DNA from: Raillietiella orientalis
Taxonomy: Eukaryota
Length of the DNA stretch: 64,000 nucleotides
Assembly: GCA_036172245.1 (NCBI GenBank)
Contig: JAYWIR010000002.1
Span: forward strand, 5,642,001 to 5,706,000
Direction of reading: 5' to 3'
The notes under the pieces are model-generated. The model was not told the DNA's origin. It was given only the letters and a program-made list of their open reading frames with translations, and searched no databases. Within the stretch, counting starts at the first letter, position 1; every line of letters begins with the position of its first letter. Made by a program: the position numbers and the translations under genes. Of the stretch, positions 113 through 55,749 are shown one piece after another.

Positions 113-3100
113 CACATATTCCTTTCGTACGAGTCCTTACACAGGAGTAACCTAGAGGACAAGATCCACCTGACTGAAGACGCTTTCCAGTGCTGCAGTA
201 GTAAACTAGAAAGAACAGCGCGCGGTGTTCAGTTCCCATGAATCTGAGTTCACGAGTGTTTTCAAGTCTCGGATCAAGGAGATGCACTGATATGCTTTCA
301 TTTCTGCGCACAAAAACCGTCGATTCTAACTGACGGCCGTTCCGAAGGGCTTTAGCAAACTCAGCGAAAACGCGGGCAACTTGCGCTATGAATTCGAAAG
401 AGAAAAGCCTGCACTCGACGGAGCCGGTAAACTGGATGACTTTATGAATCACTCAAAGAATCTGCCACTTTCTTTTAGTCGGATTCCAGTCACATATTGG
501 GATCGAGTCCCTCGTGTTTTCTCGGTTGCTTTGGAAATAACAAGTTGCCGAGATTGCAGATTCATCCCCATTCAGCGATCACTTTTCACGAAGGCATTCA
601 TATGAGAAGAAGCAATATTTAAATTCAGTGAAGTAATCATCTTACTGCATGCTGCTGCCACTGAATCACATCTTCCTTCGCAATCATCAGGAACTGCACA
701 GGCACAGTTCATTCCTCCTACTTCTTTGGTGCAGGGAGCTAGCAAAGGAATGCATCGTTGAAAAGACAATTTGCGATACCCTGCACCTTCCAGTCATACT
801 TTGCAAACAGATTTACTTGGTCTTGTGCACTTAAGAGTGACGCCATTCAATGCTTGGCGTCTACCTAAAACCTTCTGGGATAAAGCTGCTTCTTTCTCCA
901 CAGCATCCTATTCGAATGTTTCGAAAACTGATCTTTCCTTTTCTAAGGCAATTCTCAATTTCTATATTTTCGACGGTTACAACACCATTCATTGCCCATC
1001 ACACCAACAGGATCTCACAATGAGAACACTGCGTCGTTTTCCGGGCCTCGATGGAATCTTTTCTAGTGCCCCTTGACTGCAGACCACCAGTTGACAAGTC
1101 GTCACGGAAAGACACAAATGGAATGCGCGAAAAGAAAAAATGAATTATGCTCCAAAGGAGGCAAAAGGTTTCTGGATTCAGCCCTAGTTCTCTTCAGAAA
1201 ATCGTTCATTAGCTGGGCCTGGGAACAAGGATCATACATGGACGACATAGTGAACACGGAAAGTCATCAAGAAACGTCTCCATCTTCCAGAGAGATCACG
1301 CAACGAATACTAATGTGGCGACCGCTTTAAGGGTTTTTTGAGACATGACAGTCCATCTGACGTTCTTGTCATCGACAGGTGCTTCGAGCTTTTTCCGTCT
1401 CCCGACCCCGCAGTCTTGGACCTTGCTCGGACACTCCGCGCTTCGTAGGTTCCAAAAGAACGATTGCTTTATCAAGCGGCGTACAGGAAGGTTCATGAGG
1501 TTTCCGGCCATGTCCCCGGACATGACCGGAAAGTTTGCCCGTCCGAGTGGTGGATGTTCGCCGTTTGTGGACAAAGAGCCGTGAGCCATGCTAGACTCTA
1601 AACACAGTAGTGCTCGATACAGCTGAACGTGCACGATGGATTGAAATCAGCTTGGTATGGTACGGTGTATTAGGATGATATGGTATTCAGCTTGGTATTG
1701 ATGGATGTATTGATGGGAGTATTGGTATGGTGTCTATGACGACCGAGAGCGATGAGAAGGAATCAACGTGATTTGCTTTGAATCCCGAGAGATTCAGCCT
1801 CACCACGAAACGGTTTCAAACCAATTCGTGCAGTCGACGGACCCGTTATTTGATCAAAACCGTGCAGCAATGTCAACTCTTCCAACTCAAGGTGAGTCTG
1901 AGGAGGTAGTTGGCTGTACAGTCTGTTTCAGGCACGCGACCCATTCAGTCTCTTTCAAAAGTTTCGAGGACTTTCAAACACATCGTCGGTTATGCTGAGG
2001 TGTTCGCTTTCGGAATAGGTTTCCTCGCTTGCTTTGGGTCAGTTGTCAGGACAAACACTTTCTTACAGTGAAGAAGCAAGAGATACCACTCACTGCACAA
2101 TCCATCGTGACAGACTCCGCTTGCGCACTCTGCAGGTGATCTGCAACTGCAGAGAGAAAAAAGTGGATGCTTCCGGCAGTCTGGAACTAAGAAACAGCAA
2201 TTCTTGGGATAGATCTCTACCACTTTCGATTTTCGCATCATAGAGCGACTGTAAACATGTTTTACGGGCTTCCATTTGACTGCTTTGAATAGAATGATTA
2301 CTAATAGTGAAGAATCCGTAAAAGCAGCAGTATTGGTAGCAACAAAAGAGCGAAACAGGAATTATCCTCTCGTTAATGCAGTGAGGAAGGCAATCATGAA
2401 AGGCTTACCGCAAACCCCATTTTCGCATAAGAGAGGACGGCTGCATGTGGTGGGCACTTTGCAAGGGCACCCTATGTATCTATTGATTCTGGAGCACCAC
2501 GCTGAAATTCATTTTCCTTAATCAAAAATGCAAAACCATCAGCTTACTACTACCTAACATTATCGAACAGCCTCATTAAGTGATTATCATCCAACTCCTT
2601 CTCATTTCATAAATACATGAGATACGAGTGTCAACTTACCAGCATGCAACAAATTCCATCAGTGATGCGAGAAATGGCATGGAACGATAAGCACATATCC
2701 AGGGACGGTTCATGTCTTCAGAATAAGGTGAGTCGTTTTCATATGTATTTTCTTATTAGCTATTTCTTTGTTTATAATGTATGTAATAACTTGCGGGGAA
2801 AGACAAAGACATGTCTTTGGAGCTTTTTATAAAGCTCACAAATCCATAAACCGCCCAAGATGCTTCGTTCTTGCATGCCAGCAAGTATAGAAACCAATGA
2901 AACGTATGCCATGGAAGAAATTGATGAATCCAAAATCAGCAATGTGCACAAGCAACGAATCGCCATAGAATCGAAAGTTTAAGTGGTTCCTGCCTGTTGG
3001 TAAATGGAAGCTTAACTACACTTTTTTCCTTCGTTCTTCTCGCCGAATGGAAGAGGACGAAAAAAGACGCACAACCCTCCAAGTGAAATGACCGAACGCA

Positions 3101-6100
3101 GAAATTCAAATGCAGCGGTTGAGAATTCTTAATTACTTTTGTACTCAACAAAACAGCCATCGAAACATGGGAAACTTTCCTGAAGCATGGAAAACAGTCC
3201 ATCCGCTAGTGTAGGGATGAAAAAGCTGGAGACTGTGATGAATCACAGCAGCGTACGAATAGATTGGTGCAAGAGCAAACTTTGCGAACAAATTCATACT
3301 CTTTCTTTAGCGCCGATTCGCAAGACAACCCGAACTGTCAAGCAAGCAATTCGGCAACCATCACATGGCAACTTGCTGTGGGTGCCTTTCGAGCTGTAGT
3401 CAAGTTCGCTGTAGAACATGGTGTGTAATAAATAGGGAAAATAGTCCAGCAATCAGTTGGGTTCCCAAAGGTGTCCGGTTACTGTGCTCCAGGTAGTGAT
3501 AGACATTGTAGGCAAACTTGAAAGTGAATCTCGCTGCGCTCTTTCTTCGCAAACCTTCAAAGGACTCTCTAACAAAGATCAGAGATGGAGAAACCAGACT
3601 CGATCACATGAAATGAAGCATTAAGGCATTGAAGTTTGGAATGATTGTAGACGGTGCAATTTAATTAGCAGCTCTCGCTCGCACTTGATGCACCAGAACG
3701 AGACCTAAGTGCCGGAAAGTCGCACTTGAGTCTAGTTCTGGTGCATCAAGTGCGAGCGAGAGCTGCTAATTAAATTTCACTTGTCTACAATCCACAGCAC
3801 CAAAGACAGGAATGCCAGAGATTTGATGGATCTGTGCTTTCCTAAATCAAGCAGTTTCTGTTTAGTTACCTTTGAGAAACAGTGCATACGAAGAAGTTGT
3901 GGCTACACTGAAAAAGGCAAGCTCAGTTGCAACTTGCTTTAATCAGACATGCTCTCAGGCATGATGAATTTAGGGTGACTGTATACGAATACCGCTGTAA
4001 AAGTTTTGATCAAACAGTTCCAGAGAAGAGCAATTTTCTTTCTTCAGAAAAAAAAAATCATTTCGTCGTACATGGAGAAACACTTCGCAACCTCTAACTT
4101 TCCATACTGACCGCACATGCTGTTTTGGCACTCTCCATTTAGGCAATCACTATTCCAGGAACAAGGACATCCCGGGGATTTTAGGACTGAACGACAATCT
4201 GGAACTGTGGACAACATAAATTTAGCAAGGTTGTTGTCGTTATCGGCGAAGCTTATCCAGAAAATAAAATCCAACTTTAAAAGTACAGAAAAGAGAAAAT
4301 GAATTTTGGGAAGATCAAGACAAGACAAGAGATTTTGATTTCTTTTCGATATCCATCCTGGAACTGTGGAATTCGTATCACTATCAGGAATGGATTTATC
4401 GTTATTTTTAGAACGGATACATCCGATCATTATTATCGTGAACGCGGAAGGGGACAGAATGTCCTCCAGAAGAAGGATGAAAGCATACCACAGATATGCG
4501 CATTCTCATCGCAGATGAATGGGTGTCTGCAGTCAGCAGGTAGAAAACAGTCACAGTAGACAGCTCGACCTCTTCCCGCACAAGTGGCTGAAATGCCAAG
4601 AATTCCTTCAGTTTCTTCCAAACTCTGTGAAAACAGCATTCTGGTTCGCGAAATTTCAGCTTATTTGTGGAAAGAGACAGTTTGGGAGGATATTTGGGAT
4701 GACTCATACCTCTTCGGAAGTATGAGGCATTCTCGATCGAGTCAATGGAGTCTCACAGTGAATGCAACAAATGGGAAAACTCTTGTGCTCACCGCATTTT
4801 CCATCCTTACACATGTGAGACGAGCAATCTTTTGGAGACGAGCAGGGACAAGAAGGTGGGCTGTGCCATGGAAGAGAGGGACATTTTCTTCTAATATAAA
4901 CTAAAAATAAACAGAAGCTATCATTGTGAACATGCGAATGGTTCTCCATTCAACTAAGCAACCGAAACCATCTATAGTTGCAGTATCATGATCCGCATGA
5001 TAAAAAATGAAACGGACCTGCAGCCAGGCTCGACACACATGCTAAAAAGATCTGGAGCATAGTTTCTTAGCGCCCGGAGACTTTCATTCCAACTTCTGCA
5101 TTCTTGCGATAAGAGAAAAACTTCGGAAACAAAGTTGCTCAGTTTGGTACCCAAAAGATTATCACTTTCTTAGAATGGACGCCAGAGTTTTCTCCAGAAT
5201 GAGGCGTCCATTGATCGATGCAATGGGCATCTACCATCAATGGCTTGCTTATGCAATCCACATCATTAAATGAACTGTTTGGAACACGGCAAACATGTCT
5301 TTCTCCATGAGATGCAACAAAGATATGGCAGCTAAGAAACGGGGTTGCCACTCTGTACTTTTAAGTTCCTGTGTGCTGACGATTCGTTGTAGCGTTTCTC
5401 TCCCTCGATGTATCAACAGATGCAATAGCCTTACTGGATGTCAAATATGGAAGGATTGTGAAGCAATCAAGAGTATCCCACCAACGAACCCACGAATTTT
5501 GTTTCTGATAATCGCTGCTAGAGACATATGGGAAGATTTCGCAGCCACTGAATTGAAGACAGCAGAATACGGTTCTATCAGAAACAAAATTCGTGGGTTC
5601 GTTGGTGGGATACTCTTGATTGCTTCACAATCCTTCCATATTTGACATCCAGTAAGGCTATTGCATCTGTTGATACATCGAGGGAGAGAAACGCTACAAC
5701 GAATCGTCAGCACACAGGAACTTAAAAGTACAGAGTGGCAACCCCGTTTCTTAGCTGCCATATCTTTGTTGCATCTCATGGAGAAAGACATGTTTGCCGT
5801 GTTCCAAACAGTTCATTTAATGATGTGGATTGCATAAGCAAGCCATTGATGGTAGATGCCCATTGCATCGATCAATGGACGCCTCATTCTGGAGAAAACT
5901 CTGGCGTCCATTCTACGCTTGAGTCTAGTGGTGGTGCATCGAGTGCGAGCCAGAGCTGTTAATTAAATTGCACCTGTCTAGAATCCTTTCAAACTTGTGA
6001 CAACTTTGAGCTGTCACAACTTTGAAATGATTGTAGACAAGTGTAACAGAGAGTGATGCCATGGGCACATCTATCTTTGCTTAATCTCAAATACTTTCCT

Positions 6101-9100
6101 TATTATGCAGTACTTACTGCATAATGCATCCTTGCATTCCAATTCTGAGACACATTTATGTCCATTGCAGGGGCAGTACACAGACACCGACGATTTTTCA
6201 CACTGTGGCCGAGTTTCTAAGATTAAAACATTTTGTTTTTTCTTTTTTCTCATTATTGTTTTTTTTAAAAATGTAAAGAATTAAAAGTTTTGAATTCTCT
6301 ATACTCAGAAATGATTATGAATGGTACATTATGTGCCGCAACCAAAATGCTTTTGATTATTTACTGTCAAATTGCATACACTCTTTAATTGCGCCTCTAA
6401 GAAATCCATATCGAAAAGAAGCACAGTGAACACAATCCTACAGCATGGGTAGCTGTTTTACTAACCGCAAAATCCTGAAGAGCATTTCAGATGTTTTGCA
6501 CAATCCATGTTCGACCGACAAGGACAGTCTTCGACACCTAGAAACTCCCTGCAAGAATCTGCAAAAAACAGTCAGTGCCTTTGTCATTCTTTTCGGAATT
6601 CGATTATTCCAAATGCTTTGGTCTGTGGATATTTTTGAGGAATAAGAAACAGTAAATTGAAGAAAGAAAGCATGAAGATCAGCTTTCCAAACCACGGTCA
6701 CTTGTTTTATGAATACCCCAGCAATTCATAGGAAGCTTCTCTGGCTACGAAAGCAGATGGCACTAAAAGTGGCAGATATACCAAGCTCGACGTTTAAGGA
6801 GCAGATGTTTTTCGGAGATGTTTTGCGATGAAATCATGCAGCATCCCATGTTTATTTTGCAGAGGTTTCTTTAAGCCTGCGAGTGCATCTCTTTCTGTTT
6901 CCTACTGAAATCACTCAAAAGAGCACAAGTGGTTTTCTTTGCATTAAATCAATTTCTTTGCCGTATTGAAGTGTGAAAAATGAAAAGATGTGAAAAATGT
7001 TTTGCTAAAGTGGCGTCAGACTTTGTCTTCTACTTACGGCACGATCCACTTCTGCAGGTTAGACTTGCGCATTCATTACTGTTTTTGCAGCTGCAACCAA
7101 CAGGTTTAATTGCTCCTCTGCAATCAGGAACTGAAACACACAAGTCTCAGATCTGAACACCAAGGGATGTTGATTTCCGCTGCTTTCGTCGCGATATGAA
7201 AAGCGTTTCCCGAAAACATCTGCGAAAAATTGAGAAGAAAAGGAATGCATCAAGGCATACAGAATTCCAACAGCATGTGTCTCTTTAAGCTCCATTTTTT
7301 AACTGTAAGCTCATCGCAGTCTTTAAAAATTTCTTCTTGCGGAAAAAGCACGATTCTCACACTATTGCATTGTCAAGAAGTACCGCCCAAGAGAAGCAAG
7401 CAGATTCCCGTTTTTATTTTGGCTTTCAATAGGGAAGGGCACTTCAAATGGTTTCTCTAATCCCTGCATGAAGAATGGAGAAATGACCTCCTCTTCATTT
7501 GAATCGCTGAGTAATTCTTTTGTTTCTTTCTGATCTACACTGTCCTTAGAACGGTTCGGTAGGAGGACATAGAAGCAGCATCATATCAAGCCCATGCATC
7601 GTTTTCTTTCCAAGATTTCCTTTTTCTGCTGCTTTTGATCAAATTTGAAGAGAGAGAACTACTGCTTCGTGATAGCTGACGATAATTCTCCCTATCTTTC
7701 TGTTACTTGTATTAATTTCTCCTTCAGTTCTGCAGCAAGCGTTAGGTTAGTGTTTCCTGCTTCCTCCCACGAAACGTCTAAATCTTATGCTTTCTCTAAA
7801 GTGGTTTTGTCAGTTGTCAAGGAGTTCGAGATCCTTGTTTCAGAAAAAGCTTTTACTCTATGAAGGTGCTTTTCTTAGCACTACTACTGAGACAGATGTG
7901 GAGACTGGAAGTTGATAGGAGGAAGGAAAATTTTAGAAGCAAATCTAGTAATCCCAGATTTACGAATTTCTTAAACGTCCGAGTTTTCCTTTTGCATGTC
8001 ACTGGATGCCCGCTGGTTGACCTCATTGGCTATCTTTCTCACGTGAAGGATTCGCTTAACGCTTGATGTCATTTAAACTATCGGCTCTCTTTTTCGATTT
8101 AACGAACGATTGTCTTTCGTTTTGATTCTCAAAGGATGACAAACACCTGATGCAACAACTCATAGAGCGAAATCGTGTAGTAAATATCGGAAAATTCGTC
8201 TCGGCACATCATCGGGAAGTTGTGTTTGCTGCGTACGAGAACAGTGAAGCCTGGACGATGAGGTAAGCATTCGCTCTAGGAAAACGTTACTTACAGCACT
8301 TGGAAATGCTCGGAGAAACTTCCGTACATGCATACCGAGGCGCACAGGGACATGGGCAGTTGGCCTTTCCCCAATCAGGAATGCAGACATCTGCAACACA
8401 TGAGAAAGATTCTCACTTCCGCATATACCTTGCCAACCCACTGGCTTTGATCTCCGGATCTTCCAAATTAAAGATAAAATCGTCTCAAAGTAAAAATACA
8501 AAAAGACAAAAAAAAAGAAAGAAAGAGGTACACGATTTGTTCAGTTAAGAAGTCCGCATGCACTGCGACTGAAACGAGGAACAATCAACCCATGCTCGTT
8601 TAGAAAAAGGAAAACAAGCTGTTATAGTATTGTAAAAGACAATCACACATTAGTTCCGAAACAGCTTTGCACTTTTAAGAGTGGAAAATCAGTTTCGAAG
8701 AACACAATGTGCTTCTGATCCCAATGCACATTCGCCAATAATAAGTCCGATAAAGTGCAATAATTATGAAGTATATCATTCTTAAGTCAGGTTTCAGTCC
8801 CAGATTAACGATACAACTTCCACGAAATCGTTTCTTGCAGTCAAACAAGAACGAAAAGAGAGCGTTTTTTCCCTTTGCACAGCAGAACCAAAATAAAGGT
8901 AAAAGAAAACGCACCGCATTTTCTTGCCGAGCACGACTTTATGGAACAGTCATCAGGGGTCCAGCAGGGACAAGATGGCTGCAAGGGTTTTGCAGTACAA
9001 ATGACCTCTGGTAAAAAAAGATGATGTATACGCTTGAAATTTCATGGAAACCAGAGAATACTTTAAAGAATTATACAAAGTGGATATCTCAGATTCTGGT

Positions 9101-12100
9101 AGCGCCACCGATCCAAGATAGCAAGAAAATGGAGTGCAGCCTGCACGTCGAGCAGGTTTCAAAAACTTACCGCAATGTCCCTTGGAGCAGCCATAGTGTG
9201 GCTCGCAGTCCAAATCTGTGGTGCACTTCTGTGGTGCCCCTGGAATTACATACGAGACAAAACGCTGTGGAAATTAGCTTCGCTGCAGATTTCTCTGAGA
9301 TCGTAGATCAGTTTTAAATGGCGCGAACAAGATTATGGTTATTGTACACTGCAGGAGTCGAATTAACTGGTTTGCAGAGGTGGAAAAATGTGTCACGACG
9401 ACAACTAGTGATAGGAAAGCTCTCCAGAAGTATCGACACACCTTAGGATCCCGCACTGAAGACCAATGGGCTTCCTCGTGGATCTCATTTGTCATTCTTT
9501 TGATTTATTTAAGTCTATTCAGCTGCGCTGTGCATTGCTGAGAGGCAGGTCGACTGCCTTTATTGTAGAAACACAGGTTCTAGCCTTTGCTTTGTGTATT
9601 GATTATGAAACCGGAGGAGTTCTAATAGGGAAAGAGATTTTGTGGAACTGGAATTTCCGCTGCCCCCCGGTGTTTCTCCCATAAAGTGGCAAGAACCCAG
9701 CACAACGATTCAACATCTCCGTGGATGTGAAGTTAGAGTGATTTTAGAGCAAGTTTTCAGAAGGCACTTATTGTTGATGATTTTCAACCAGAGCGGCTTC
9801 GAAAGCATTCCTTTGCATTTGTCTGCACGGGTATGCACGTTGGATACCATTGAAATGACAAGCTCGTAAATCTCACTCTATATTACTCTGATTGTGTGGA
9901 TGTGCTCCACATATAGTCATTCTGGAGTGAACTCTTCGGAGTGAGAACGGTCTCAGTGCACAAGTGAGATAGATTTCCGAACCGAAAATTCAGCAAGCTG
10001 CAAATTTTCACCACACATACTGACGAATGTTTGCATGCCTAATCGGAATTATATCTTCACACATGCCGAATGAGTCCAGAACGTTTCACTGCATGTTGTG
10101 ATCAATGGCTGCTGTTTCTGCCTATGCAACCAATAAGATGAAAGACTCCGACCGTTTTTCTCGGCTTATGAGCTCGTATGCAAAAATTACAAGTTGAACA
10201 CCTCATGTTTTGTGAGATGGAAGCCATTTTCGCAGATGTACAGAATTACTTCGGGACACTCTTATCTGGCAAAGTCGGCAGCTAAAACTCAGTTTTTTGC
10301 TTGCGACTTGCCATCAGACGTTCAGCTTTTCAGTGCTCGAATTAGATAAAGCGTTTATGCACTTGGAGCAAAGTGTTTATTAACGTTATTTGTGCCATTC
10401 GCAGAGTCCCTCTTTTTCTTTTTTTTTTTTGGAAGAGAGAAAAGCATTTGATTAATGCGTGTCAAACTTATTTTGAGAGCACTTACCACATAGCAGTTCT
10501 TCGCAATTTTTACTTTCACACCAAACAGAGGTCCTGCATGAACAAGAAGGATATCGGGGAAGTCTTTCGCAGTCGAGTTCTATAATCAAAGAGTAAGAGT
10601 ATTCAAATATTTCTAGAGCATGTCGCTCATTTGTGATTAGGAGAAAACAATCCTGTTTATGAGTGCTTGAAAGATCTTACCACAGGCTTGATCCTTACAC
10701 AATAATCGATGATCACATTCTTCAGGAGAATGGCATGGGCAGCCTGCCGGTTTGGAAGTAGGTGAACAATCCACTAGGACACAGAAAAGAAAAATCAGGA
10801 TCAATCTCTTCTTCAATGTGATTCTTAATCTGATAAGATCGTGTTCCAAAGTTCTAGAACTATATCGAAAACCTTGCAGTCTTCGGGATGAGAAACTTTT
10901 CCCTCAAAAACACTCCACTTGGCACAAATTCCATCTTCCTCGTGACATAATCTATAGATTCCCAGAGTAGAAAATGAAACCTTCATTCAGAATGTGCGAA
11001 AGATTTATTAGAGCCTACAAAACTTGCTGTTAACGAGGAAAACATTCGTTCTACGTGATTAAAATCAGGAGTTGAAATCAGGTTTGCATGAGACCGACTT
11101 GCATTTTCCTTGATGTAAACGTTCCGTCTGGAGAATGCAACACCGGAAGATGAGCTTGTAGCAATGAATGCTTAGCAAATCTGCGTGTTCCCATCTAAAA
11201 ACCCTCCACGAGGCAGGAATCTTAGATGTTAGGCATCTTCTAATCGAAAACCAGGTGGCTCGCAGCTAGGGAATGTGCTGCGGCAACGGAGACGAGGATT
11301 TACAATGCAATTGGCGCGCATCTCAAGTATTCCAGTTCTTTGGAGCCATTTCTTGAATCGAAGAAAGCACTGTTTCCTCACTGATCCAAAGTCTCAACGT
11401 TATCTGCTCACCATCCAGTGGGGCAAACTTTTCTTGTGGAACACTGTGGTTCCTTATGCAGAAGTCTTACTTGGACATTCAGGATTCTGTGAAAATGTTT
11501 CCGAATGAACGTGCTTATTCTCCTGTTGCCTGATTCATTTTATAAGTGGAATAGGAATCACAGTGCTGTTCGTGACAGAAAGAAATACCAGGTGTTCTGG
11601 AGCTCCAGATAATGATCAGTCATGCATGTTGGATGGGAGACAAATTGCAGGTAGTCATTGTCTTTTTATGAAATGACTACTTTTTTATGAAAAATTTCTG
11701 AAGGCATTTGAACCAAACGCAGCATAAAAAAATCATTAAGTGCCATCAGTGATTCCCATTCTCCGAACACGAAGCAGTCAGAGAGTTTTTTTTTTTGTTC
11801 ACCCAGAGAGAAAGGGGAAAAAATACTCAGCATGGTGGTCGCGTTGATCGTGGTACAGGAGCATCAATCTTGACATCGTTTCGACAGAGCAATATAGAAA
11901 GAGTGAAAATTTGGATTTTCCTACAAATTTCGATGGAGGAGCATATCACGAAAGAGGTTTCCGTTGTTCAGAATTGACATGCCAGTTGTAACATGGGAAT
12001 GAACTTACTGCAGTGACTTTCGAAGCAGATTCCACTCATGCACTTGTCGCCAGAAAGACAAGCGCATCCCGCGGGCCGCTTTTCACTCGGACAAATTAAA

Positions 12101-22800: not shown

Positions 22801-25800
22801 AGCTTTTCGTGGAGACAAGGAACATATATCTAACAAAAATTGTTATCAAAAATGATTATGGTACAGTATTTTCACTTGCATAGTGGCAAATATATCATGA
22901 AAAAAACACGGATAAGGACATTTACCGAAGCTTTGCTTCAAAGGAAGACGCAAAGTACGAAGTAGTATTTAAAAGACTATTCCATTTACCTGTTGGAAGA
23001 AAAGGTAAAGAGTCAAGCAATGGAATCGGCGAGTGCCCAAATCCTCCATCCATCTCCAAGCCTCCATGTCCCCTGACTTGAAGGTAACATATGAGGTCTT
23101 TCTGAATCAGTACTACAACTGTATGTTTTCCAACGATTGGAGCTTGTTCAGTGTATACAAGTTTCCCAAAATCAGTTTCCTTTTCTTCAGTACCAAAATG
23201 TGGCTTTTGAAATGTGATATTCATGGCATGTAGGATTATGTTGGGTTCGTGAGGAACATAAGGAGATGGAACGATTTCCGAACAAGAAATAACAAATGTG
23301 TAATTTTTAATGGTGCTGTCAATATCAAAAGAGAATGTTTTTCGTTTAGTGTTTACTTCGTAATGGAGTAAATCCTCATATAAATGATACTGAACAAGGT
23401 AATCCATGAGAGTCTAAAAACATGGAAAATAAAACATTAAATTAGTCTAAATTTGAATATTTTATTACCATACATGTAAACATCTCAGCATTGAGAAACA
23501 ATGGCACTTGGTGTGTCTGTCTTTCAATGGATATTCATTTCATATAGCACTGTCACTCGTTTCCGCTTTTTGTGCAGCGCAAGCGTGGATTCGGTTGCTT
23601 GATTCAGAGTGCTTCAAGCAAATCACAAAGCAAAAACGATCCGTCAACATCAAGAGCTTAGAGACAAGATAGCTTCTTGAATTTTTCAGTAATTTTACCA
23701 TCAGAAGGAAATAAAATAATTTCGGGTGGCTGAGATTCTAATACACCGTCTTTTCGATTCTCGCTTGCCTGTGTCCACCAAAATTTATGATTCGAATGTC
23801 TCAGATCTCAGGTTGCTGAAAAGACTGTAATGGGTAAAGCTGCAGCACCAGCACATTTGTTTTCAGCTGCTTGGGGTGGGTGGGTGCTAACTCCTTTTTC
23901 ACAGCCTTGAGTCCTTGGCGCGAAATACTATACTTTAACACAGTTGCATATTCTAAAGAAGTTTTTTTCTGACATTTCCAAAACCGAATCCGATCTGTAG
24001 CATACAAAATCTTCCGACTTTTCGTTTGAAACTGGAAAGTCCCATTTTGATTCAACTCCTTGTTAGCGAGTAAATTTAAATTACAACATGAAACTCTTAA
24101 TTTCGAACGCTATCGTTTCACAAAAACAGTGAGTTTATGTTTCCTCCCTGTTATCAAGAAGTTAATCAAAGGAAGTGCATTAAAAGAAAATGAAAGATAA
24201 ATCATTAAGAACGGGCAGACTTTATTAAGCATTCCATTAAGAATTTCAATCTATGAACCTTCAAATCCACATTTTGAAAGCAATTAGAGACCTATTTCAA
24301 CGAAAATTTCATCATAGTTGAAATCTAATGGAATCAGACAGAATATTTTCTACCTCTTCTGAGATGTCTTTTTAGGTTGTCTTCAGTAACATTTACTCAT
24401 TGATACTGTTCCTCCAGATAGCATTGTGTATGTTTCCGTACTGATTCCACTATTCTACTAATCTTTTCACCTTCGAAGCTGTTCTCGTGCAAATTGTTTC
24501 CAACTCGGATCTGTTCAAGCACCGCATTCTCTTCGATGCGCCTTCCATTCCGGATTTAGCGTGGACTGCGTTCAAATGCCACGCAGCTTTCCAAATGAAA
24601 TTTGCATCCAATTCCGCATGTTTTGTTAATTGAAAGCAAACAACGCTCGTAACAGAATTTAAAAACCACTCTTATCCAAATGGCAACACGTTTAGGGTAT
24701 TTCCTGGTTTCCCCTTGATTTTGGAGATTCCTGTCAAATGCCGGATCACACATCAAAAGTGTGCCGCATCTCAAACGCGACTTGGTACTGAATTCAACGG
24801 ATGATTCAGAAATACAGTCGCATTGATCAACGTCCTCATGCAATGCCTTTCATCTGAGATGTACATTATACCTGCAGGAGATACCTTTTGCTTCGACTGA
24901 ACGCTTCAGTAATTGCAAATGAAAACTCTCTCTTCCACACAATTCTTCATCTCTTGGTTGCTGCTGTAAATTTGGTTCTATATGTAAATGGATGCGCAAT
25001 GTGTTTTTTGCTGGTTTCGATGTAGTGAAAATCAGTCTAAAATATGAGGTTCAACTTATTGCTCTTCTTGTCAGAAAGCTCGTCTATTTTTCTATTTCTA
25101 TCTGTGCTGCATTCTGTCCTCGAGAGCTGAAAGTTTCTCTTGCAACTCTTGTCTGCTTGAGGAGTGGTACGCTTTCGGCCATCGCTATCATTCTCCATGA
25201 ATTGGTTTGTCTACTTTACATCCGTTCGGTATTCGCTTTAGGCACAATCCCGCACTACTCTATGAGCTACTCTACTCTACGTCAAAGTGAAGATTTCTAA
25301 ATCCTCACTTTGACGCTGAGTCTTGGTTCAGAATGAGCTGTCCTGTATTTCCGGACATGCTTAGACCAGCTGCCGTATTCCAATTTTATCACTGAACTGA
25401 ATTCAACTGTCAGTTTTCTGTTGAATTTACATACAAACTGTTGGACCGCATTCAAGCCACGAATCTCCCTCAAAAGTAAAGGAAGAAAGAACAAACACCT
25501 CTTCGGATGTGTTAGACTTGGTCTTCGTTTCTCTTCGCTTGCAAGTGTAAGTTTAGTGGAAACTCTCTGGATTACACATAGAGAGCTCCCTCCAAAAGGT
25601 GCTTTCAATGGAAAACTTGTCAAGGCAGCATGTAAGAGTCTGATTCACATATGACATTTGGAATGCTATCGAATTAACGAATGATTAATTTTATTTTGAG
25701 CATCACATCACTCTCGACCAAGGGGAAACGAGCACTGAGGAGCGAAATGAATTTGAATGGAAACGAAAACATGGAAAAAGGAAAAGGAAACTTAGGAACG

Positions 25801-28800: not shown

Positions 28801-31800
28801 TGCACGACAGTTTGCAAAAAGGAAAATGCATGTAAAACTGACTCTAAATAGAGATGAATGTATGACTGAAATATGGAACTGTTCATAGAATTCACTCGTA
28901 TTGGCGTGGAGAGTGGGCAGGCGTGGAAATTTGGATTATTTTGAGCGTCGTTTTGTTCATCCTCATCTGATTTACAAGTGCACACTATGGAACAAAAGGT
29001 CATTAATATCTCCGTTACTTCGTCTTCGCTGTTTACCTCAAGAGCCGTCGCGTGCCTGGCGGCGCACGTGGCTCTTTAACACTGTTCCACGCCACCCGCG
29101 GAGGGTGCTTGTTATTCTTCAAGATAGGGGGCACCCTGGAAGGGACTCCGCCCTATGAATCCAGGAAGGCTCGGAGTCCGTTCCTCTCACGCTTGGGGAC
29201 GGGGGGGGACCGCACCTCCCACCCTGGTTGTCTCCGAGGGGGAACCCAGAAGGGAATCTCCTTCCTCATTCTCTCCAGAGGGACATCCCCCTAATGGGAA
29301 GGGTGGTCCTCTCCATTTCATCTTCTCCGAAGGGAACTCGGAAAGGATCCGCTAGTAGTGATTTCTTCTCCGGAGGGAACCCGCAAGGGAACCGCTCCTG
29401 TTCATTCCTCTGAAGAGAACCCCGAAGGGACGCTTCCGAAATTCAGAAGGGGCGCTGCAGCTTTCCGCGGGAGGATCGCTCTCGTTTGCTTCCTTGCACT
29501 CACTAGAGAGGCGGCGACTCGGAGGATTCTCTCCTCAACAGGGGGGATCCGCTCCTTTTAACAACTGGAGAGGTGCCTGTGAAGGTTCCTGCTCCATTTT
29601 GAAACCGGAGGGGTCCCCCCGGTATGGGGGTCCGCTCTCCGTTGCACGACAGGAGGGGGGAACTCCCCACTCCTTGATCCTGGGCCTCCGGCTTAAACGA
29701 CCACCGGTGCCACGCCCGAATGTCTCAGCCAACCAGCGCCATTGCAGGAGAAACTCGAAACCCAACGGCGCAATGGCATCAGTTTCTGTCGGAGTATTCG
29801 ATCCCGCGACGCATGGTGCCACACGCGGAAGCCTTAACCACAAAGTCTCCGACGCGGGCGGTACATCTCCAATCTCAGCTCAAGCAATGCACATTACTTG
29901 AGCCGTCACAGTAGCTCCAGGAAAACCGTGTTCAACACATACCAGGAAACAAGAGAGCTTGTTTCCTAGCTATTCTGATCAAGTATCGAGTATATCATTA
30001 TTTCTATTATCTTGGAGCGATGCAATATTTGAATTCAGATTTCACCTTGGTGTGCTTAGCAAATGTGCTATAAAGTCAAATAAAGTTTCCGTGATAACAC
30101 ACTTGCTCACACTGAATTGCATTGAATTCCTTCTACCTTTATTTTCCATTCCAATGATTCTTTTATGATTTTGGTTACAACTTCCTTGTACTTGCTAGCG
30201 GCATCAGAGAAAATTAAGACAAGAGACCTAAAAACCCACATGATTAGCAATCATTGTCAAATATGGTAAAAGATTCAATTTCATGCATTGTACATGTGAC
30301 AATCACGAGAAAAATACTTGTGAATGGGAGATGGAAGGATGCGTATCACGACTGAGCGAATGGTGTTAGCTCAAAAACGTGCTCTTATTTTCCATTGAAA
30401 TTCCTCCCCGGCCTGCGCTTGTATATCAGAGCATTGCACCCGGACCGATAGCAACACTTTACTATGTGGCAAACAGTGTCGCTACCAGTCCGGGTGTAAT
30501 ACTCAGAATAAGCACATCCATTTCGAATCACAAAAATCACAGAAAAAAACAGGCAGAAAAAAGATTCAAAAGGATCTGAAACTCTATCAGCATAAAATCA
30601 AGAGAAAAAGTTCCTCCTTTTCATCAACTTTCCACTGATAGAAAAATCTCAAACGATATCACGTTGTTTGCGTAGTGTTTGGGTATCGCGCATTTACTGA
30701 GTTGAAACTAATCAAAGAGGTCGTCGCTTGACTCAAATACCAAACCTGATTCACTGAACGAACGCGACTCCTCGTTTTTATACTTTCATCTCGAGTGACG
30801 ATCAACCCTTCTTCTTATCCAGCTGTTCAAATTCAGTGCTTGCCGTTGGGAAGCTGGAATGCTTCATGCGACTGCATGCTCAACGTCAAAACGCCAGAAG
30901 AGAGAGCAGCATCGATGCTTGCTTAGCTTAAAGTTTGTTTCTCAACTTCTAGACATACGGGAAAACTCTAGTGAGATCGCTCCCTTTTCTATTCTTACTC
31001 GCGCACCCATTTTGTCCTTTGGGTTAGGACAAACAGCATCCTTGATCAAACATCACACTTCGTCTGGTTTTTCATAGTTCTTCTATGTATTTTTCCGAAA
31101 ATCAGGGTTACCTGCAAGAGGTTGCATCATACAGAAGCAGCCTTACGCTGCGGCAAGCATCTGAATGTGACCGTGATTTCCGTTTTTTCATTTCCTACAA
31201 AGGGGGAGCTCCGATGCTCAGATTTGAGTGCTACTAGCTTTTTCCTAAATCCTTAAACTCGGAACATTTCCAAACAAACTTTTGTCTTATACTGCTCCAA
31301 GCACTTCGTCCAAATTCGGGCTCTTCACTAATAGTTGGCAACATGATCTTCTGGAAGTACACCTACACCTGCTTTCCTACACGCATACACGTACTTCAGA
31401 GTATTTCTGCTGATCGATTCGTTTCTTTTTATTCCGATCTCGAATCATCTTCACAGTGAAGGGCCATCAATACAGCTCCAATATGACAGAAAATCCGCGC
31501 ACTACATATTCGTTTTAATTAATGATATCTCAGTGTAAGATTATTTTGCAACTTTGAAATTTTGCAACTGTATGTCACTGAAGTACTGAATTCCGAAAAG
31601 GAAAAAGGTGAAAAACCTTTTTTTGTTCAATTCTGGTGCCAATGTTCATAAAGAAGTTCTTCCTGATACTTCTCCAGAAAACTGTTCAAAGACATCATTC
31701 TTCAGTGGCGGTTTCTAGTTTTTTTCGAAAGAATCATACTGGTTTTATGTTACCAAGTCCAGCCTTGGCTAGAGCCACAGATTTACACCTACGTGTGTTT

Positions 31801-34800
31801 AATATAGGTTTCAAATTTGAATTGAATGCTTCTGCGGCATGGCACCTTTCTCAATTTGCAATATGCGGCCTTTTGAAGAAAAACTGCGGCGTTGCAAAAA
31901 AGTCCTCTTCTTAATGAAAACCTATCATCTTCGTATTCTCCTCATTTGTCATTGGACCATTCTACATTCCTGTCATTTTAACCTTGGTGCATGGAGGTCA
32001 TCTATGACATAACTAGAAAGACTTCATACTTCTGCTGACTCTGATAAGTAAATTGCACTTTATAAAAGCTCAGCCAGTTTCTTTTGTAACTTCTTAACAC
32101 TTGAATACCCATCATGCCTTCACAATTCTGTGAATTATGGAAGGGTACACCAGCCAAACCAAGACCTCTCATCCCCTGCCATTTGTTAGGTTACATTTCA
32201 CATGAGCATGTGAAAAGAAAGCACCCTGACAAGATGATTTGACCTGAGTATCTTCGGTTTTCCTCTAATCCTCAAAGTCCAGTTACTATCGGGTGCATGT
32301 GCGATGAATGTCGAGTGCATATCCATCGCATACGCATAAGTTTCGATATAAATGCAATGCCCTCATTAAAACTATAATCTTGTTTTAAACCAAGTTTTAA
32401 AACAGGTTTTTCACATTCCTGTGTCAGAAAATCCATGATTTCCGGAAGTTCCCTGCATCAAAAATCCCATTCCGTCGAATTTCGCGTTTTGGTGATCGCG
32501 AGTTTAAAAGCTAGAAGGAAATAAAACAGAACAATAGAAGCTGATACAGACCGTCGTTGTACCATAGCAAGAGCAACTACATCCATAGTGTGGTACAGTG
32601 TTTCTGGATAGTCCGGTCCTCCATGTGTTTCTTCCAATATGACCGGCAGTATTTTCCTCAAATCCTCGCTTCTGTCGGCTATTCCAACTAAACACAAAAT
32701 ATAAGGAAAGTCACCCGTTTTCAACGTACACTGGAACGGTTATCGATGAAAGCCGAACCCTCTCTTTTCGTCAACTGCCACGCAGTTGTTTGGTAAAGCT
32801 TTCACAAATTGAAACCTCGTGAAAATGGAAGAGCTTCTCTAGAAAAAGGGGATTTCCGAACCTCTCATTCTGAAGCGATGAACATTGATAGCGGATGGAA
32901 ACTGCTTTCAAGTTCCCACATCATGCAACACTTCTATCTACCCACAATGCTTTATCATTCTAAAGTCTATTCCAAGTCATATTCTAAAGTCCGATTTTGC
33001 CAAGCAACCCTGTTTTTTTTTGCATTCCGGATGCTTTTCCCCGCTTTCATTTTCCCGCAAAGGTGGAATCCTGATCATTCTCTTGCTTGAGTCAGAAGAG
33101 CCAGTTGGTACCTTTTTACCTGAAGCCTCAGAACATTTCCAAACAAACTTCTGTTTTATACCGTTCCAAGCGCTTCATCCAAATCCCTGATTCTTCACCA
33201 ACGGTTACCAGCATGATCTTCTGGAAGCCCAACCTCATAAAAACATGCATACAAGCGAACTGCTGAGTGTTTTTGCTGTGATGCTGCTCTCGCACGTTTC
33301 ATGCTCGTGAATTTGCAGCAGAGAAAGCAGAGGAAACATCATTTGCTGAGGGAGAGTCTCAGCAACCTGAGGACTCTGCACACAAAACTTGAGGAGGAAT
33401 TTGAGGACTTCAGATGCAATTTCCTTCCGAGGACTGTGTTGAGGACTGAGCTAGTGGCATGTGGCTCTGCTAACCTTCGGTCGGATGCTCAAGTCTGAGT
33501 TGACGTATGAAGGAAACTCCATCACCCTAAGTCTTGAAGCTGTGAGCGTTGATGAGCGTTGCTGCCACGCAACGCTCACGTAGGAGCATCGGAATTCGCA
33601 AGTCTTCCGGAGGAAGAGGGGGAGAACCCTTTGTTTGCATCTTGTCTGCTAGTTGCAAATTCCCTCAAAATACTCAGATATTTGCCACGGGAGCCATCAG
33701 CAGTACATGGATCCCGAATATTCTTACGGATTCAGCTGAGAAAGGAATCCAGGATTCGCTGTGGCAGCAGATCTTTTGTGTCATGTACGTGATCTTTCGT
33801 TGGACCAGCATTTGACATCCCTGATAAATTTTTCTTGTTGCCGCCGAACGTTTGTAGTTTCCTAGCCTTTAGTGGTATCTCAGAGGAGTAGTATTCCTTC
33901 CTTTGATTCTTCTGCCCGATTCCTTGTTCCCAGATTAGTTTGAGTAGTCATTGGGTTCTCAGGAAATGATAAGAACTAGAAAACCGAGCGAGACATTCGG
34001 CATTCTCAAACTGAAGGTACAAATTCTCGAAGCCATGGTATTCAAGCTGACTTTAGATTTCGAGTTGGCTCGAGTGTGTCCATAAATTCTCAACTACTCG
34101 TCGGAATGTATCCAGAAAATGGGCCTGCAAACGCGCTTTTGGGCATCGCGGTTTCCAATCGTGTTTGTCTGCTACAACATTCGTGTTGATTCGAAGGGGA
34201 ACAAAAGAGGGAAGCGGGCAGCAGCAGCAGCTGTTTCTTGGAAGACCATTTGATATTTCAACCATTCATCCCTACGTGCACTGGCGGTCATCTGTACAAC
34301 TTCCAGTGCGTATAAAGCCAAAGAAGGCTCACCACAAATGCTGCTGTCGAAGGATTGAGCTTTCCATACTCCAGATGTTGTTCTCGGGACTATTTTCGAG
34401 AGCAGGAGTACGTGTTCAGCTCGTATAAAATCTCCAAAAACGGATTTGCTTGTTGACACTTCTTGCGATTTTCTGGTTTTCCACCTGAAGTTCGAAGCCC
34501 AGGCAGCATCCAATTCATATCGATGGCTCATATTTTCAAGACACTACACGGGAAAGCAACCTGTGCGACCTTGCAAGCGTACCGGCTATGAAAGCGTTGG
34601 TACATGGTACATGCACTCGATGGTACATGTACTAAATGTTGAAACCTTTGCTAATGCACGCAATCGGGACGGAAAGATCTGCGCGAAAGACAGATAGGTG
34701 GTGTACCCTCCCTGCAATCCCGAAAATCTTCCTACGTTGTCTTCGGCGTTTCGACACCACATAATGCGTAATGTTTCAACTGATTGACTGAACCAGGGAC

Positions 34801-35405
34801 ACAGAGGGAAGACGCATTTCGAGCTTTTCCCTTTAGGAAACCGGAAGGAGTCAGGCTGCGCATCGTGGGAGATGATGCTGGAGTTCCTGGAACGGTTATG
34901 GACATTGTGGAATACATATCACATTACGCAGCCGGTGAACCACAGGATGTGGATGCTCCTGCGTTATGCCACCATATGCTCACTTTTTAGAGTTTCGATA
35001 TCACGAATTGCAATGGACTCTCGCGGAAACGCGTGCGATCTTCCAGAACGGCGTTCTGGATGAAGTGAAATTTGCGATGCAAATTGCAACATACTCACTT
35101 CTAGGCTGCACGCCGTACTCAATATCAGAATATCCAATCAGAAAGAAAGGATAGAACTTCCCTTCGTGCACAGTATTGACGGATGTGAAAATGTGATCTG
35201 ATGTGTTAATGGCAAACTCCATGCTGAACACCATCGAATTCGATATATCTACCATCATGCCAAATGTTTTGTAACCCCTTCTTTCGTTGGCAAATGTTCT
35301 GTCATATTCCAAATCAAAGTAGCTCGCGTCAAATGGCAGAATGCACCATGTCGATGATGCAACTTTCACTGACGACAGCACCAGCGTCAGAAGCACAGCG
35401 TACTC
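113..35405 (-). CDS. Large multi-exon gene for a predicted secreted protein: VWA (hemicentin/VWA7-type) + 2 beta-sandwich + Ig + CUB-like + >=19 Cys-rich mini-modules; 3' end runs off the window
   Basis: Hand-built exons in transcript order: 35099-35405, 32552-32687, 30137-30227, 27631-27753, 22990-23413, 21518-21699, 20336-20411, 17953-18088, 17766-17893, 17569-17719, 16178-16320, 14658-14756, 13721-13846, 12734-12754, 12293-12388, 12144-12236, 12009-12101, 10681-10773, 10487-10579, 9171-9239, 8915-9007, 8295-8390, 7038-7130, 6466-6558, 6118-6216, 4793-4900, 4489-4587, 4112-4204, 2409-2501, 2094-2186, 646-738, 113-205. All have AG/GT ends, phases match and no junction codon is a stop (3826 nt). 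N-terminus EYAVLLTLVLSSVKVASS is hydrophobic. The ATG exon is uncertain (candidate ATG AGC at 35454-35449 with a 43-bp intron). Confidence 0.8.
3643..3792. mobile_element. ~150-bp foldback/MITE-like hairpin element
   Basis: Arm gattgtagac..ttaattagcagctctcgctcgcacttgatgcaccagaac pairs with gttctggtgcatcaagtgcgagcgagagctgctaattaa..gtctacaatc. A diverged half copy lies at about 5917-5995. Confidence 0.6.
5171..5915. repeat. Long inverted repeat: 340-bp arms (5171-5510, 5576-5915) with a 65-bp spacer
   Basis: Arm ends are exact reverse complements (tagaatggacgccag / ctggcgtccattcta; gtttctgata / tatcagaaac). The ORF track gives identical mirror translations on both strands. Confidence 0.95.
14658..17719 (-). 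CDS. Exons 10-12: divergent CUB-like domain
   Basis: RCSKEHVVSYDTGCQKSVQWSSEF..NCYQPCIYSLVLP..CSIRIKFLKAEM..QCFSAQSIAF..YILCGNKSG..VIVRLVGKATLSL..FSIAL follows the CUB pattern (C, C-x-Y-x-I-x-x-P, IxLxF, C, LCG). The exons are well supported by splice sites and phases; the domain name is an inference. Confidence 0.5.
17766..18088 (-). CDS. Exons 8-9: single immunoglobulin-like domain
   Basis: PKVKIVFPP...TIFCIVSSNTPFSASF ... LYLRI...DLSGKTYHCRVENDQG carries the B-strand Cys and the D-x-(S)G-x-Y-x-C-x-V-x-N-x-x-G F-strand motif. Intron 17894-17952 is 59 bp. Confidence 0.75.
20336..23413 (-). CDS. Exons 5-7: two beta-sandwich domains of the type that follows VWA in hemicentin/VWA7-like proteins
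   Basis: TFSFDIDSTIKNYTFVIS, CYLQVRGHGGLEMDGGF, LVEIYDRDG and YVK|VKGITSGGIPFIRQ parallel the hemicentin post-VWA motifs (IPFDPSLKEVTVSLS, SVRITGLSTIDFRAGF, LELLSISG, FLKVTGYDKDDYLFQR). Phases 0-1, 1-0 and 0-1 join cleanly. Confidence 0.75.
27631..35405 (-). CDS. Exons 1-4: hemicentin/VWA7-type von Willebrand A domain
   Basis: Spliced translation TFGMMVDISNSM...FFLIGYSDIEYG / GGPDYPETLYHTM / SLVLIFSDAASK / FLYLHMTVGSSSC...SLMFTFD. It lines up in order with the remembered hemicentin VWA motifs (LAFVFDVTGSM, FALVPFHDP, GGGDCPE, FIYVFTDARSK, VVFVLTGDC). The MIDAS DxSxS and the downstream Asp are present. Confidence 0.8.
29042..29910. mobile_element. GC-rich repeat-family insertion in an intron (LTR-retroelement-like remnant)
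   Basis: Sharp GC rise within an AT-rich intron. Internal subrepeats TCC(G/A)GAGGGAACCCG-AAGGGA resemble 55770-56070. Direct repeat gagccgtc at 29042-29049 and 29900-29907. Confidence 0.5.
34130..34530 (-). mobile_element. Possible decayed Penelope-like GIY-YIG endonuclease remnant
   Basis: TSGVWKAQSFDSSICGEPSLAL...EWLKYQMVFQE...GNRD loosely matches the Penelope SGVY..C..YIGET...DW...E...NRD pattern. Heavily decayed. Confidence 0.3.
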
Positions 35406-53200: not shown

Positions 53201-53676
53201 AGATACTCGAGGTTGAGCAAGGCAAAACAGACGAATGGAAAGAGGCGATGCTGAACAACGTTCAACATCTAGAGGAGGAAGTGAAGTTCCATCTTGAACA
53301 GCGCCTGCAAACTTATCAGACCACTGGTTTCACACCGCAAAAACGAGAATGGACCTATCCTGAACACTTAGCAGCCACCTCCCCTCATGAACGCATCGTG
53401 GAACGGTTCCGCCTCCAAAAAATTGCGGAGAGCACTGTCGCTGATTTCTCCTCTTCAATTAAGGAAGAACTTCTCAATACTCCGGAACCTTCACTTCCAG
53501 TGGTCGATGCGGCAACCCCCAATGACGATGATGATAAGGAAAATGCCTCCTCTTGCAAACTACCCTTCAGTCGCACGCAAGCGCGGTCGTTACGTAAACA
53601 ATACCCTTTATCTAAAGAGATAAAGGAAGCTGCGCAGGTGAACAACGTGCCTAACACGTTGCGACCCGCGAACTGA
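50269..53676 (+). CDS. KIF11: Kinesin-5 (Eg5/BimC/Klp61F), ~1063 aa, 6 exons
   Basis: Exons 50269-50324, 50369-50516, 50557-51630, 51675-52086, 52129-52595 and 52642-53676 total 3192 nt. Motor motifs [21 protein letters not shown] and [10 protein letters not shown]; kinesin-5 neck NITNKPEIN; coiled-coil stalk; BimC box TGFTPQKR. Confidence 0.97.
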
Positions 53677-55070: not shown

Positions 55071-55289
55071 CGCTGGCGGATTCCCGCGGCGTGGACAGAG
55101 GGGTACACGGGTCGCGGGCACACCTTCGCGCCTTCAGGATCTCTTGGGAAGCTGTGGGCAGTTTCGGGCGACGGGATCCCTGGGATGTTCCCCTCCTCCT
55201 TTGTCCCCACTCCGCGCGTGCCTCTTCCCTCACGATCTCTTCCCAGTGCACCGCTTCCGCTGCTTCTCTTCCCCGCTCTTGCGCCCGCG

Positions 55290-55720: not shown

Positions 55721-55749
55721 CCTTCAGTCCTTGCCACCCGAGAGCGCGT

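Follow-up and report, generated by a model that had tools for sequence, protein, structure and literature searches.

A Long Minus-Strand Gene of Raillietiella orientalis Predicted to Join a Hemicentin-Type Head to a String of Knottin-Like Cysteine Modules

Overview

In the present analysis a window of 64,000 nucleotides from Raillietiella orientalis (assembly GCA_036172245.1, contig JAYWIR010000002.1, positions 5,642,001 to 5,706,000) was studied, and its minus strand was found to carry between positions 35405 and 113 a chain of short exons, which with a probability of about 60% represents one long (>35 kb) protein-coding animal gene with a probably secreted multidomain extracellular product, composed of a hemicentin-type head and a string of cysteine (Cys) beads. 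The head is of a known kind, the tail module is absent from Pfam, and the combination was not found in searches that covered the array with its modules and the single exons.

The chain was curated manually and then checked against a profile of the VWA_4 family. It includes 31 exons with compatible phases, runs from 35405 to 113, and totals 3,805 nt, 1,268 codons, and 126 Cys; each exon is open, and every intron starts with GT and ends with AG. An earlier note on this DNA had described 32 exons joined in frame into about 1275 amino acids. The in-frame chain is real and its phases fit, but it counts 31 exons and 1,268 codons, and two of its exons cannot be adjacent due to a TGA codon formed at their junction (13721/12388), which is discussed below. 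The proposed order of domains, namely, VWA, putative beta-sandwich region, one Ig-like segment, CUB-like segment, and Cys modules, holds.

A Putative VWA_4-Type Domain Split over Four Exons

Twelve head exons, from 35405-35099 down to 14756-14658, were chained by hand, and the first four of them appear to encode the VWA domain:

35099..35405, minus strand: exon 1, 307 nt, phase 0 to 1; acceptor aatttcag, donor gtgagt
32552..32687, minus strand: exon 2, 136 nt, phase 1 to 2; portion of the VWA domain carrying G-G-P-D-Y-P-E; weak donor gtctgt
30137..30227, minus strand: exon 3, 91 nt, phase 2 to 0; VWA strand beta-4 with S-D-A, then a helix
27631..27753, minus strand: exon 4, 123 nt, phase 0 to 0; completes the VWA domain; acceptor ggactacag, donor gtaagt

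Exon 1 encodes a hydrophobic, signal-peptide-like stretch followed by the VWA strand beta-1 with the metal ion-dependent adhesion site (MIDAS) motif D-I-S-N-S. Secretion of the product is probable, as judged from this partial signal peptide (a hydrophobic core, with no start codon seen).

The family called VWA_4 in Pfam (PF25106) was searched across 401 Spirochaetota genomes, and a VWA-core profile was made from 28 of the 30 fetched PF25106 open reading frames (ORFs; loci L004-L033 of these genomes), after L023 (wrong ORF) and L027 (masked stretch) were dropped. The spliced exons 1–4 scored 21.4 bits against this profile over its positions 15–157, a value below Pfam's own 27-bit cut-off, while the best of 3,000 shuffles reached 6.9 bits and the score of the reversed sequence was lower. 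With a generic VWA profile (29 of 30 PF00092 ORFs) the same spliced exons obtained −2.0 bits, the best shuffle giving 7.3 bits. Since the score is 21.4 bits with the PF25106-derived profile versus −2.0 bits with the generic one, the head appears to be specifically VWA_4-like (PF25106-like), in agreement with the hemicentin-type VWA head that the earlier note had suggested.

When exons were added stepwise from 1 to 4 the VWA_4 score grew from −0.2 through 10.7 and 18.4 to 21.0 bits, and it collapsed without exon 2 or exon 3 (10.0 bits without the latter). This stepwise growth speaks for the exon chain as well as for the family, and it explains the invisibility of the single exons. Exon 1 aligns to profile positions 15–57, and three motifs of the gene stand opposite those of the profile: D-I-S-N-S opposite D-t-T-g-S, G-G-P-D-Y-P-E opposite G-G-g-D-k-p-E, and S-D-A opposite t-D-A. 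The metal-site motifs D-x-S-x-S and S-D-A are intact. An alternative exon at 32452-32276 brought no gain in the profile score (9.8 versus 10.7 bits), and the S-V-S-A-S-I-V-L stretch following exon 2 was better taken as intron.

PF25106 gave no match to any single exon in Pfam scans. Among 175 raw minus-strand frames (E ≤ 0.05) nothing relevant was matched, and among 17 exact exon pieces (E ≤ 10) only exon 5 obtained a match of interest (PF23560, E 0.15). For exon 1 there was no usable Atlas match and no match among PDB sequences, and a word-index protein search with the stop-to-stop frame 35004-35411, which contains this exon, scored nothing. The PF25106 family itself is common in bacteria, being above the curated cut-off in 179 of the 401 Spirochaetota genomes, mostly in ORFs of 500–650 amino acids.

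Continuation of the Head

Beyond the VWA domain the head seems to continue as in hemicentin and VWA7, with two beta-sandwiches and one Ig-like domain, and then with a CUB-like domain. These assignments are less firm, as they come from weak matches or by-eye reading of the predicted protein. The order of motifs (VWA and both beta-sandwiches) is presumably colinear with that of human hemicentin-1, which we take as a lead and not as a test. The exons are as follows:

22990..23413, minus strand: exon 5, 424 nt, 141 amino acids, phase 0 to 1; putative first beta-sandwich, GBD_Hemicentin-like
21518..21699, minus strand: exon 6, 182 nt, phase 1 to 0; putative second beta-sandwich region, domain assigned by eye
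20336..20411, minus strand: exon 7, 76 nt, phase 0 to 1; putative end of the second beta-sandwich; donor gtaagt
17953..18088, minus strand: exon 8, 136 nt, phase 1 to 2; opening half of the Ig-like segment, including the first of its Cys; acceptor tatctccag, donor gtaaga
17766..17893, minus strand: exon 9, 128 nt, phase 2 to 1; remaining half of the Ig-like segment, carrying Y-H-C
17569..17719, minus strand: exon 10, 151 nt, phase 1 to 2; CUB-like part a
16178..16320, minus strand: exon 11, 143 nt, phase 2 to 1; CUB-like part b
14658..14756, minus strand: exon 12, 99 nt, phase 1 to 1; CUB-like part c, ending in K-C-G-C-P-T; link to the array

Exon 5 was matched weakly by the Pfam family PF23560 (GBD_Hemicentin; E 0.15, 12.4 bits with a cut-off of 27, residues 16–44 on profile positions 7–35), and in the language-model Atlas, independently of Pfam, clusters carrying PF23560 stood at ranks 2, 3, 15, and 16 with scores of 0.76–0.86, below the 0.9 mark; one neighbour, from molluscs, also carries PF25106. 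Pfam and Atlas name the same family for this exon among 24,736 families, neither being significant alone. The AlphaFold model obtained from the single sequence was all-beta with a predicted local distance difference test score (pLDDT) of 44.5, too poor for a structure search; no PDB sequence was matched, and the word-index protein search scored nothing. In the 401 Spirochaetota genomes PF23560 produced 2 weak matches and none above its cut-off, too few for a profile. Exons 6 and 7 had no Pfam match, and exon 6 possesses an alternative donor 6 nt upstream, at 21524, that keeps the phase.

The Ig-like segment contains two Cys 47 residues apart (a spacing of about 45–60 is usual for I-set/C2 domains) and the Y-H-C motif. 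The top PDB sequence match of exon 9 was a titin Ig domain (2bk8), weak (E 0.47) and located at the expected strand position, while neither half of the segment was matched in Pfam. In the CUB-like part the pattern of Cys and hydrophobic residues over about 130 amino acids agrees, as judged by eye, with the consensus of CUB domains (PF00431), which are beta-sandwiches of about 110 amino acids with four conserved Cys; parts a and b matched only unrelated PDB sequences (E 0.24 and 1.8), and a complex prediction for the three exon products gave a score of 0.02 versus the mark of 0.34. Exon 12 has the acceptor ctgttttag, the donor gtgaga, and G as its last base.

An Array of Symmetric Cysteine-Module Exons

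In the entire window the pattern C-x5-14-C-x-C-x4-8-C-x3-8-C-x3-8-C had 15 minus-strand matches, all within 647-12386, and no plus-strand match. In each strict match an AG precedes the first Cys codon by 2–8 bases, the last Cys codon is followed one base later by a GT, and thus each module appears to be one symmetric phase 1-1 exon. A relaxed pattern added four degenerate copies, which resulted in 19 exons, all phase 1-1 and about 31 amino acids each:

13721..13846, minus strand: atypical Cys exon, 126 nt, 8 Cys; cannot splice to the next exon
12293..12388, minus strand: Cys module exon, 96 nt, phase 1-1
12144..12236, minus strand: Cys module exon, 93 nt; follows a 56-nt intron
12009..12101, minus strand: Cys module exon, 93 nt; follows a 42-nt intron
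10681..10773, minus strand: Cys module exon, 93 nt
10487..10579, minus strand: Cys module exon, 93 nt
9171..9239, minus strand: short Cys module exon, 69 nt, 4 Cys
8915..9007, minus strand: Cys module exon, 93 nt
8295..8390, minus strand: Cys module exon with variant spacing, 96 nt
7038..7130, minus strand: Cys module exon, 93 nt
6466..6558, minus strand: Cys module exon, 93 nt
6118..6216, minus strand: Cys module exon, 99 nt
4793..4900, minus strand: Cys module exon, 108 nt
4489..4587, minus strand: Cys module exon, 99 nt
4112..4204, minus strand: Cys module exon, 93 nt
2409..2501, minus strand: Cys module exon, 93 nt
2094..2186, minus strand: Cys module exon, 93 nt
646..738, minus strand: Cys module exon, 93 nt
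113..205, minus strand: final Cys module exon inside the window, 93 nt, first half degenerate; donor gtgagt

Exactly 93 nt is the length of 12 of the 19 module exons, and 13 of the 19 donors read GT[AG]AG. The consensus of the 19-copy alignment is C-x8-9-C-P-C-x5-C-x4-5-C-x4-5-C, with three invariant and two nearly invariant Cys. Identity between modules outside the Cys positions averages 10–13% without a higher-order period, and no repeated DNA linking the array units was found; this combination indicates that the array would be old, with the scaffold alone kept.

Two kinds of intronic element lie within the array. A perfect (100%) inverted repeat of 340 nt (5171-5510 and 5576-5915, with a 65-nt spacer) represents a foldback element of very recent origin or else an artefact of the assembly. 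The second is palindromic (3653-3793, 59-nt arms, 93% complementary), with another copy 2.2 kb off at 5918-5986 (86–88% identity), and looks like an intronic miniature transposon.

Fold and Database Relatives of the Module

No module reached any Pfam family in a scan of all 19. The weak matches were scattered: Toxin_12 (PF07740), the sole family matched by more than one module, appeared in 2 of 19 (best E 0.054), and DUF7107, LEAP-2, hEGF, Lustrin_cystein, Adt-1, and EGF_Tenascin in one each; in addition, the stop-to-stop frame 8956-9273, which contains the short exon 9171..9239, matched DUF7107 weakly (E 0.021). When the 19-copy profile was compared with 1.84 billion representative proteins, 16 matches were obtained at E ≤ 0.001 and none at 1e-10, the best outside match being 53 bits against 473 bits summed over the module's own 19 copies, which match by construction. 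Among these 16 matches 10 carry DUF7107, 10 EB, and 5 Dickkopf_N, and 3 carry no family. No close relative of the array came up among the 1.84 billion representatives, annotated animal proteins included. The word-index protein search with the module alignment scored nothing, and the module profile had no match among PDB sequences.

The AlphaFold model of the module from the 19-row alignment was confident, with a mean pLDDT of 85.5. Foldseek returned five rows for it, all spider knottin toxins, at E 2.1–9.5 and query-normalised template modelling scores (TM-scores) of 0.53–0.71. The Foldseek-independent VIA-align, run over 48,161 chains, gave nine chains at Z ≥ 2, seven of which are peptides from the venoms of spiders, sea anemones, and a cone snail, while the other two are LEAP-2 and the draxin Dickkopf-like domain; the best match had Z 3.2 and a root-mean-square deviation of 1.7 over 27 residues. 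It should be considered that small disulfide peptides readily match one another. According to these models the module is probably a knottin-like three-disulfide bead, in the sense of resemblance and not of membership, and as judged from the profile searches it is a candidate mini-domain undescribed in current libraries.

The same resemblance raises the question of whether the array is a polyprotein precursor, cut into free knottin-like peptides (toxins, antimicrobials, or channel blockers) with the head as a carrier. The nearest folds of the predicted module are indeed venom knottins, Toxin_12 and LEAP-2 are among the weak Pfam matches, and the module loops are very variable. On the other hand, the fold matches are weak, only 2–6 residues separate the final Cys of a module from the opening Cys of its successor, and a dibasic site is present in 1 of these 18 linkers, which argues for a stiff string rather than a precursor cut into peptides. 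Moreover, knottin precursors are not known to carry a large VWA/Ig/CUB-like head. Processing into free peptides is therefore considered highly improbable, and a covalent bead string within one protein is preferred.

The Junction Stop and the Integrity of the Chain

At junction 13721/12388 the bases T and GA form TGA, the sole junction stop in the chain, and for this reason exons 13846-13721 and 12388-12293 cannot be neighbours. Omission of either exon preserves the frame (G+GA or T+TA), as all these exons are symmetric and the frame survives either splice choice; exon 14658 joins 12388 directly as GGA. A bridging exon was sought between 13720 and 12389 and none was found, and exon 12388 has no alternative acceptor, a stop lying immediately upstream of it. 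The exon 13846-13721, which has 8 Cys and places its donor within a Cys codon, is atypical and is skipped, alternative, or decayed. The chain effectively consists of 30 or 31 exons and 18-19 modules, so that the earlier count of at least 19 small disulfide modules stands for the 19 exons and falls to 18 if the atypical one is skipped.

This stop is also the first argument for a decaying or unexpressed relic, in which the exons are recognisable while the full protein is no longer made. The weak donor gtctgt of exon 2, weak acceptors at two array exons, a start codon that was not confidently found, and the lack of a close relative in word-index protein searches (exon 1 frame, module alignment, and exon 5) point in the same direction. 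Against this, no exon of the chain is interrupted, the stop vanishes on skipping one symmetric exon, the VWA metal-site motifs are intact, and all 19 modules keep Cys at the three invariant and two nearly invariant positions despite the low identity elsewhere, which fits long selection on the scaffold. A relic is thus quite improbable, and a functional coding chain remains the favoured reading.

One Gene or Two Genes

The head and the array quite probably form one gene, as judged from splice signals and phases: both are on the same strand, and the phase-1 donor of exon 14658 fits the phase 1-1 array exons. In the alternative a hemicentin/VWA7-like gene would end near 14.6 kb after the CUB-like exons and be followed downstream on the same strand by a gene of Cys modules only. 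This arrangement could be proposed since the first array exon (13846-13721) is both atypical and unspliceable to the next one; furthermore, the unspliced frame of exon 14756-14658 continues to a stop near 14503, and AATAAA hexamers, counted as chance occurrences, lie on the gene strand at 14237, 13727, 13265, and 13216. It has to be set against these points that exon 14658 carries a phase-1 gtgaga donor while the array is all phase 1-1, that the junction 14658/12388 reads GGA, and that the array has no start of its own in the window: a search of 17560-12389 for an ATG-started hydrophobic first exon with a phase-1 donor found none. Two separate genes are accordingly regarded as unlikely, and the single gene is retained below.

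Limits of the Gene

The outer positions 35405 and 113, which the earlier note had given as the limits, are splice sites: 35405 is the first base past the acceptor aatttcag and 113 the last base ahead of the donor gtgagt. As this donor shows, the gene extends past the window; the array reaches the window edge at 113, and the stop codon lies beyond the seen sequence. Exon 35405 is without an ATG, and hence an upstream 5′ exon is missing from the chain. Between 35450 and 40000 there were 11 ATG-started phase-0 candidates, one of which has the joint-highest donor score (9.4):

36575..36589, minus strand: candidate 5′ coding exon with an ATG and 4 further codons; phase 0, donor gtaagtg; speculative

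This exon would put M-L-W-W-N ahead of the hydrophobic stretch of exon 1, and its choice as the start exon is a guess from sequence. The upstream ATG at 35454 was rejected as a start because it is in a different frame.

Four introns of the chain are tiny: 59 nt after exon 8, 46 nt after exon 9, and 56 and 42 nt in the array. Such introns are normal in this genome, since a KIF11-like gene in the same window also needs introns of 42 and 46 nt. The first 36 kb have a GC content of 38–49% and many short open frames. No paralogue of exons 1, 2, 5, and 9 was found elsewhere in the window, and Rfam gave no match over its entire length.

Comparison with Known Proteins

The gene resembles hemicentin (HMCN1 and C. 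elegans him-4) in having an N-terminal VWA domain of the same subtype with D-x-S-x-S, G-G-x-D-x-P-E, and x-D-A, followed by a region with weak GBD_Hemicentin (PF23560) signals and then by an Ig-like segment. In hemicentin the head is followed by dozens of Ig modules and an EGF/fibulin end, whereas here a single Ig-like segment leads into a CUB-like segment and then into 18-19 six-Cys modules; the long Ig array and EGF/fibulin end that characterise hemicentin proper are not seen in the chain, the C-terminus of which lies beyond the window. VWA7 and VWA7-like proteins also contain a hemicentin-type VWA domain and then beta-sandwich and Ig-like parts, but VWA7 is not known to have a Cys-module array or a CUB domain. 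In the part of the literature available on hemicentin/VWA7 domain architecture no relevant paper was found, and the titles retrieved for knottin, von Willebrand factor, and tandem included no such protein. It is plausible that the protein is lineage-specific, as had been proposed.

As regards the module, its second half, C-x5-C-x4-5-C-x4-5-C, is common to DUF7107 (PF23416), EB (PF01683), and Dickkopf_N (PF04706), and the draxin Dickkopf-like domain (5z5k_B, Z 2.0) is among its fold matches; the modules differ from these families by an additional N-terminal C-x8-9-C-x-C. With the family profiles themselves DUF7107 matched 1 of 19 modules (E 0.0086) and EB and Dickkopf_N none, and the resemblance is apparent at the sequence level only via shared database neighbours.

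In the inhibitor cystine knot three disulfides are paired I-IV, II-V, and III-VI and knotted, and spider knottins typically have an adjacent CC pair. The modules share with knottin venom peptides six Cys in about 30 residues, and the nearest solved folds are U3-scytotoxin-Sth1a (5fzv, Z 3.2) and hanatoxin 1 (1d1h, query-normalised TM-score 0.71), neither of them significant. In contrast to these toxins the module pattern is C...CxC...C...C...C, without an adjacent CC pair, and the modules would form a covalent string within a large protein whereas the toxins are free peptides.

The closest spacing was observed in XP_043214807.1 of Amphibalanus amphitrite (1,846 amino acids, "neurogenic locus notch homolog protein 1-like"), which contains C-x9-C-G-C-x5-C-x4-C-x4-C-C repeats and gave 47 matched stretches, each of at most 11.3 bits, with no Pfam family. 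It differs in its double unit of about 76 amino acids, in highly uniform copies, and in having no VWA head in the sequence shown. This protein as such consists of about 24 near-identical Cys-rich double units, and its notch-like annotation looks wrong.

Other Features of the Window

A kinesin-5 (KIF11/Eg5-like) gene occupies 50377-53676 on the plus strand, and its four long open frames would become continuous on removal of tiny introns such as 52087-52128 (42 nt) and 52596-52641 (46 nt). Human KIF11 matched its motor at 481 bits and Drosophila Klp61F at 451 bits, and the identity to human KIF11, as judged by eye, is about three quarters over the aligned residues, a result indicative of an animal and probably of an invertebrate. 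At about 54 kb the GC content rises from about 0.42 to 0.60–0.66 (54001-64000), with long overlapping frames on both strands. In this GC-rich part a long plus-strand open frame at 57427-58299 is by eye like the first exon of an SLC7-type amino-acid transporter, and a peptide stretch common to 55365-55754 and 60202-60546, also noticed by eye, suggests a repeated element. On the minus strand an open frame at 43143-43736 resembles by eye a part of the reverse transcriptase of a retrotransposon lacking long terminal repeats (non-LTR).

Discussion

Several observations weigh against the reading of the locus as one gene for a secreted protein with a hemicentin-type head and a Cys-bead string. The profile used for the head is self-made from bacterial seeds and is not Pfam's model, its 21.4 bits are under the 27-bit cut-off of Pfam, and no single exon was significant against Pfam, either as raw frames or as exon pieces. 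The CUB-like exons had no Pfam match (all three) and no relevant PDB match (parts a and b), and the fold matches of the module are weak (Foldseek E ≥ 2, Z ≤ 3.2). The junction 13721/12388 forms a stop, and the join of exon 14658 to the array is read from strand, phase, and proximity only. Finally, neither end of the gene is covered by the exon chain, which leaves out the start codon, a part of the signal peptide, the stop codon, and a possible membrane anchor.

If this reading is accepted, a working scheme can be proposed. The hemicentin head is thought to bind a partner or to self-associate in matrix assembly, and by analogy the VWA_4 head would bind a partner or self-associate through its metal site, while the beta-sandwich, Ig-like, and CUB-like parts would add binding surface. 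The Cys modules would fold as small knottin-like beads with a fixed disulfide scaffold and individual loops, and the bead string would serve either as a long, stiff, protease-resistant stalk spacing the head from its attachment or as many small binding faces. A role in matrix assembly or adhesion, as in hemicentin, is the most likely one on this analogy.

A bolder proposal is that the modules constitute a new exon-sized knottin-like family and that a "poly-knottin" with about 20 beads acts as a multivalent recognition array, for instance for microbes, gametes, or several matrix partners, and not as a mere spacer; this is a doubtful proposal with the odds well against it. If true, the knottin scaffold would here be employed not in free peptides but as part of a large modular extracellular protein.

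New domain combinations are common in lineage-specific matrix proteins, and the locus touches no long-standing open question. It carries a lesson for annotation, as a domain split over four short exons was missed exon by exon and became clear once spliced. Extracellular proteins of animals arise by shuffling of phase 1-1 exon modules, and the locus would be a clean example of such shuffling, in which a hemicentin-type head is combined with a run of undescribed disulfide modules. If expression confirms the gene, it would provide a new tail for the hemicentin/VWA7 group together with a candidate mini-domain with a confident predicted fold.

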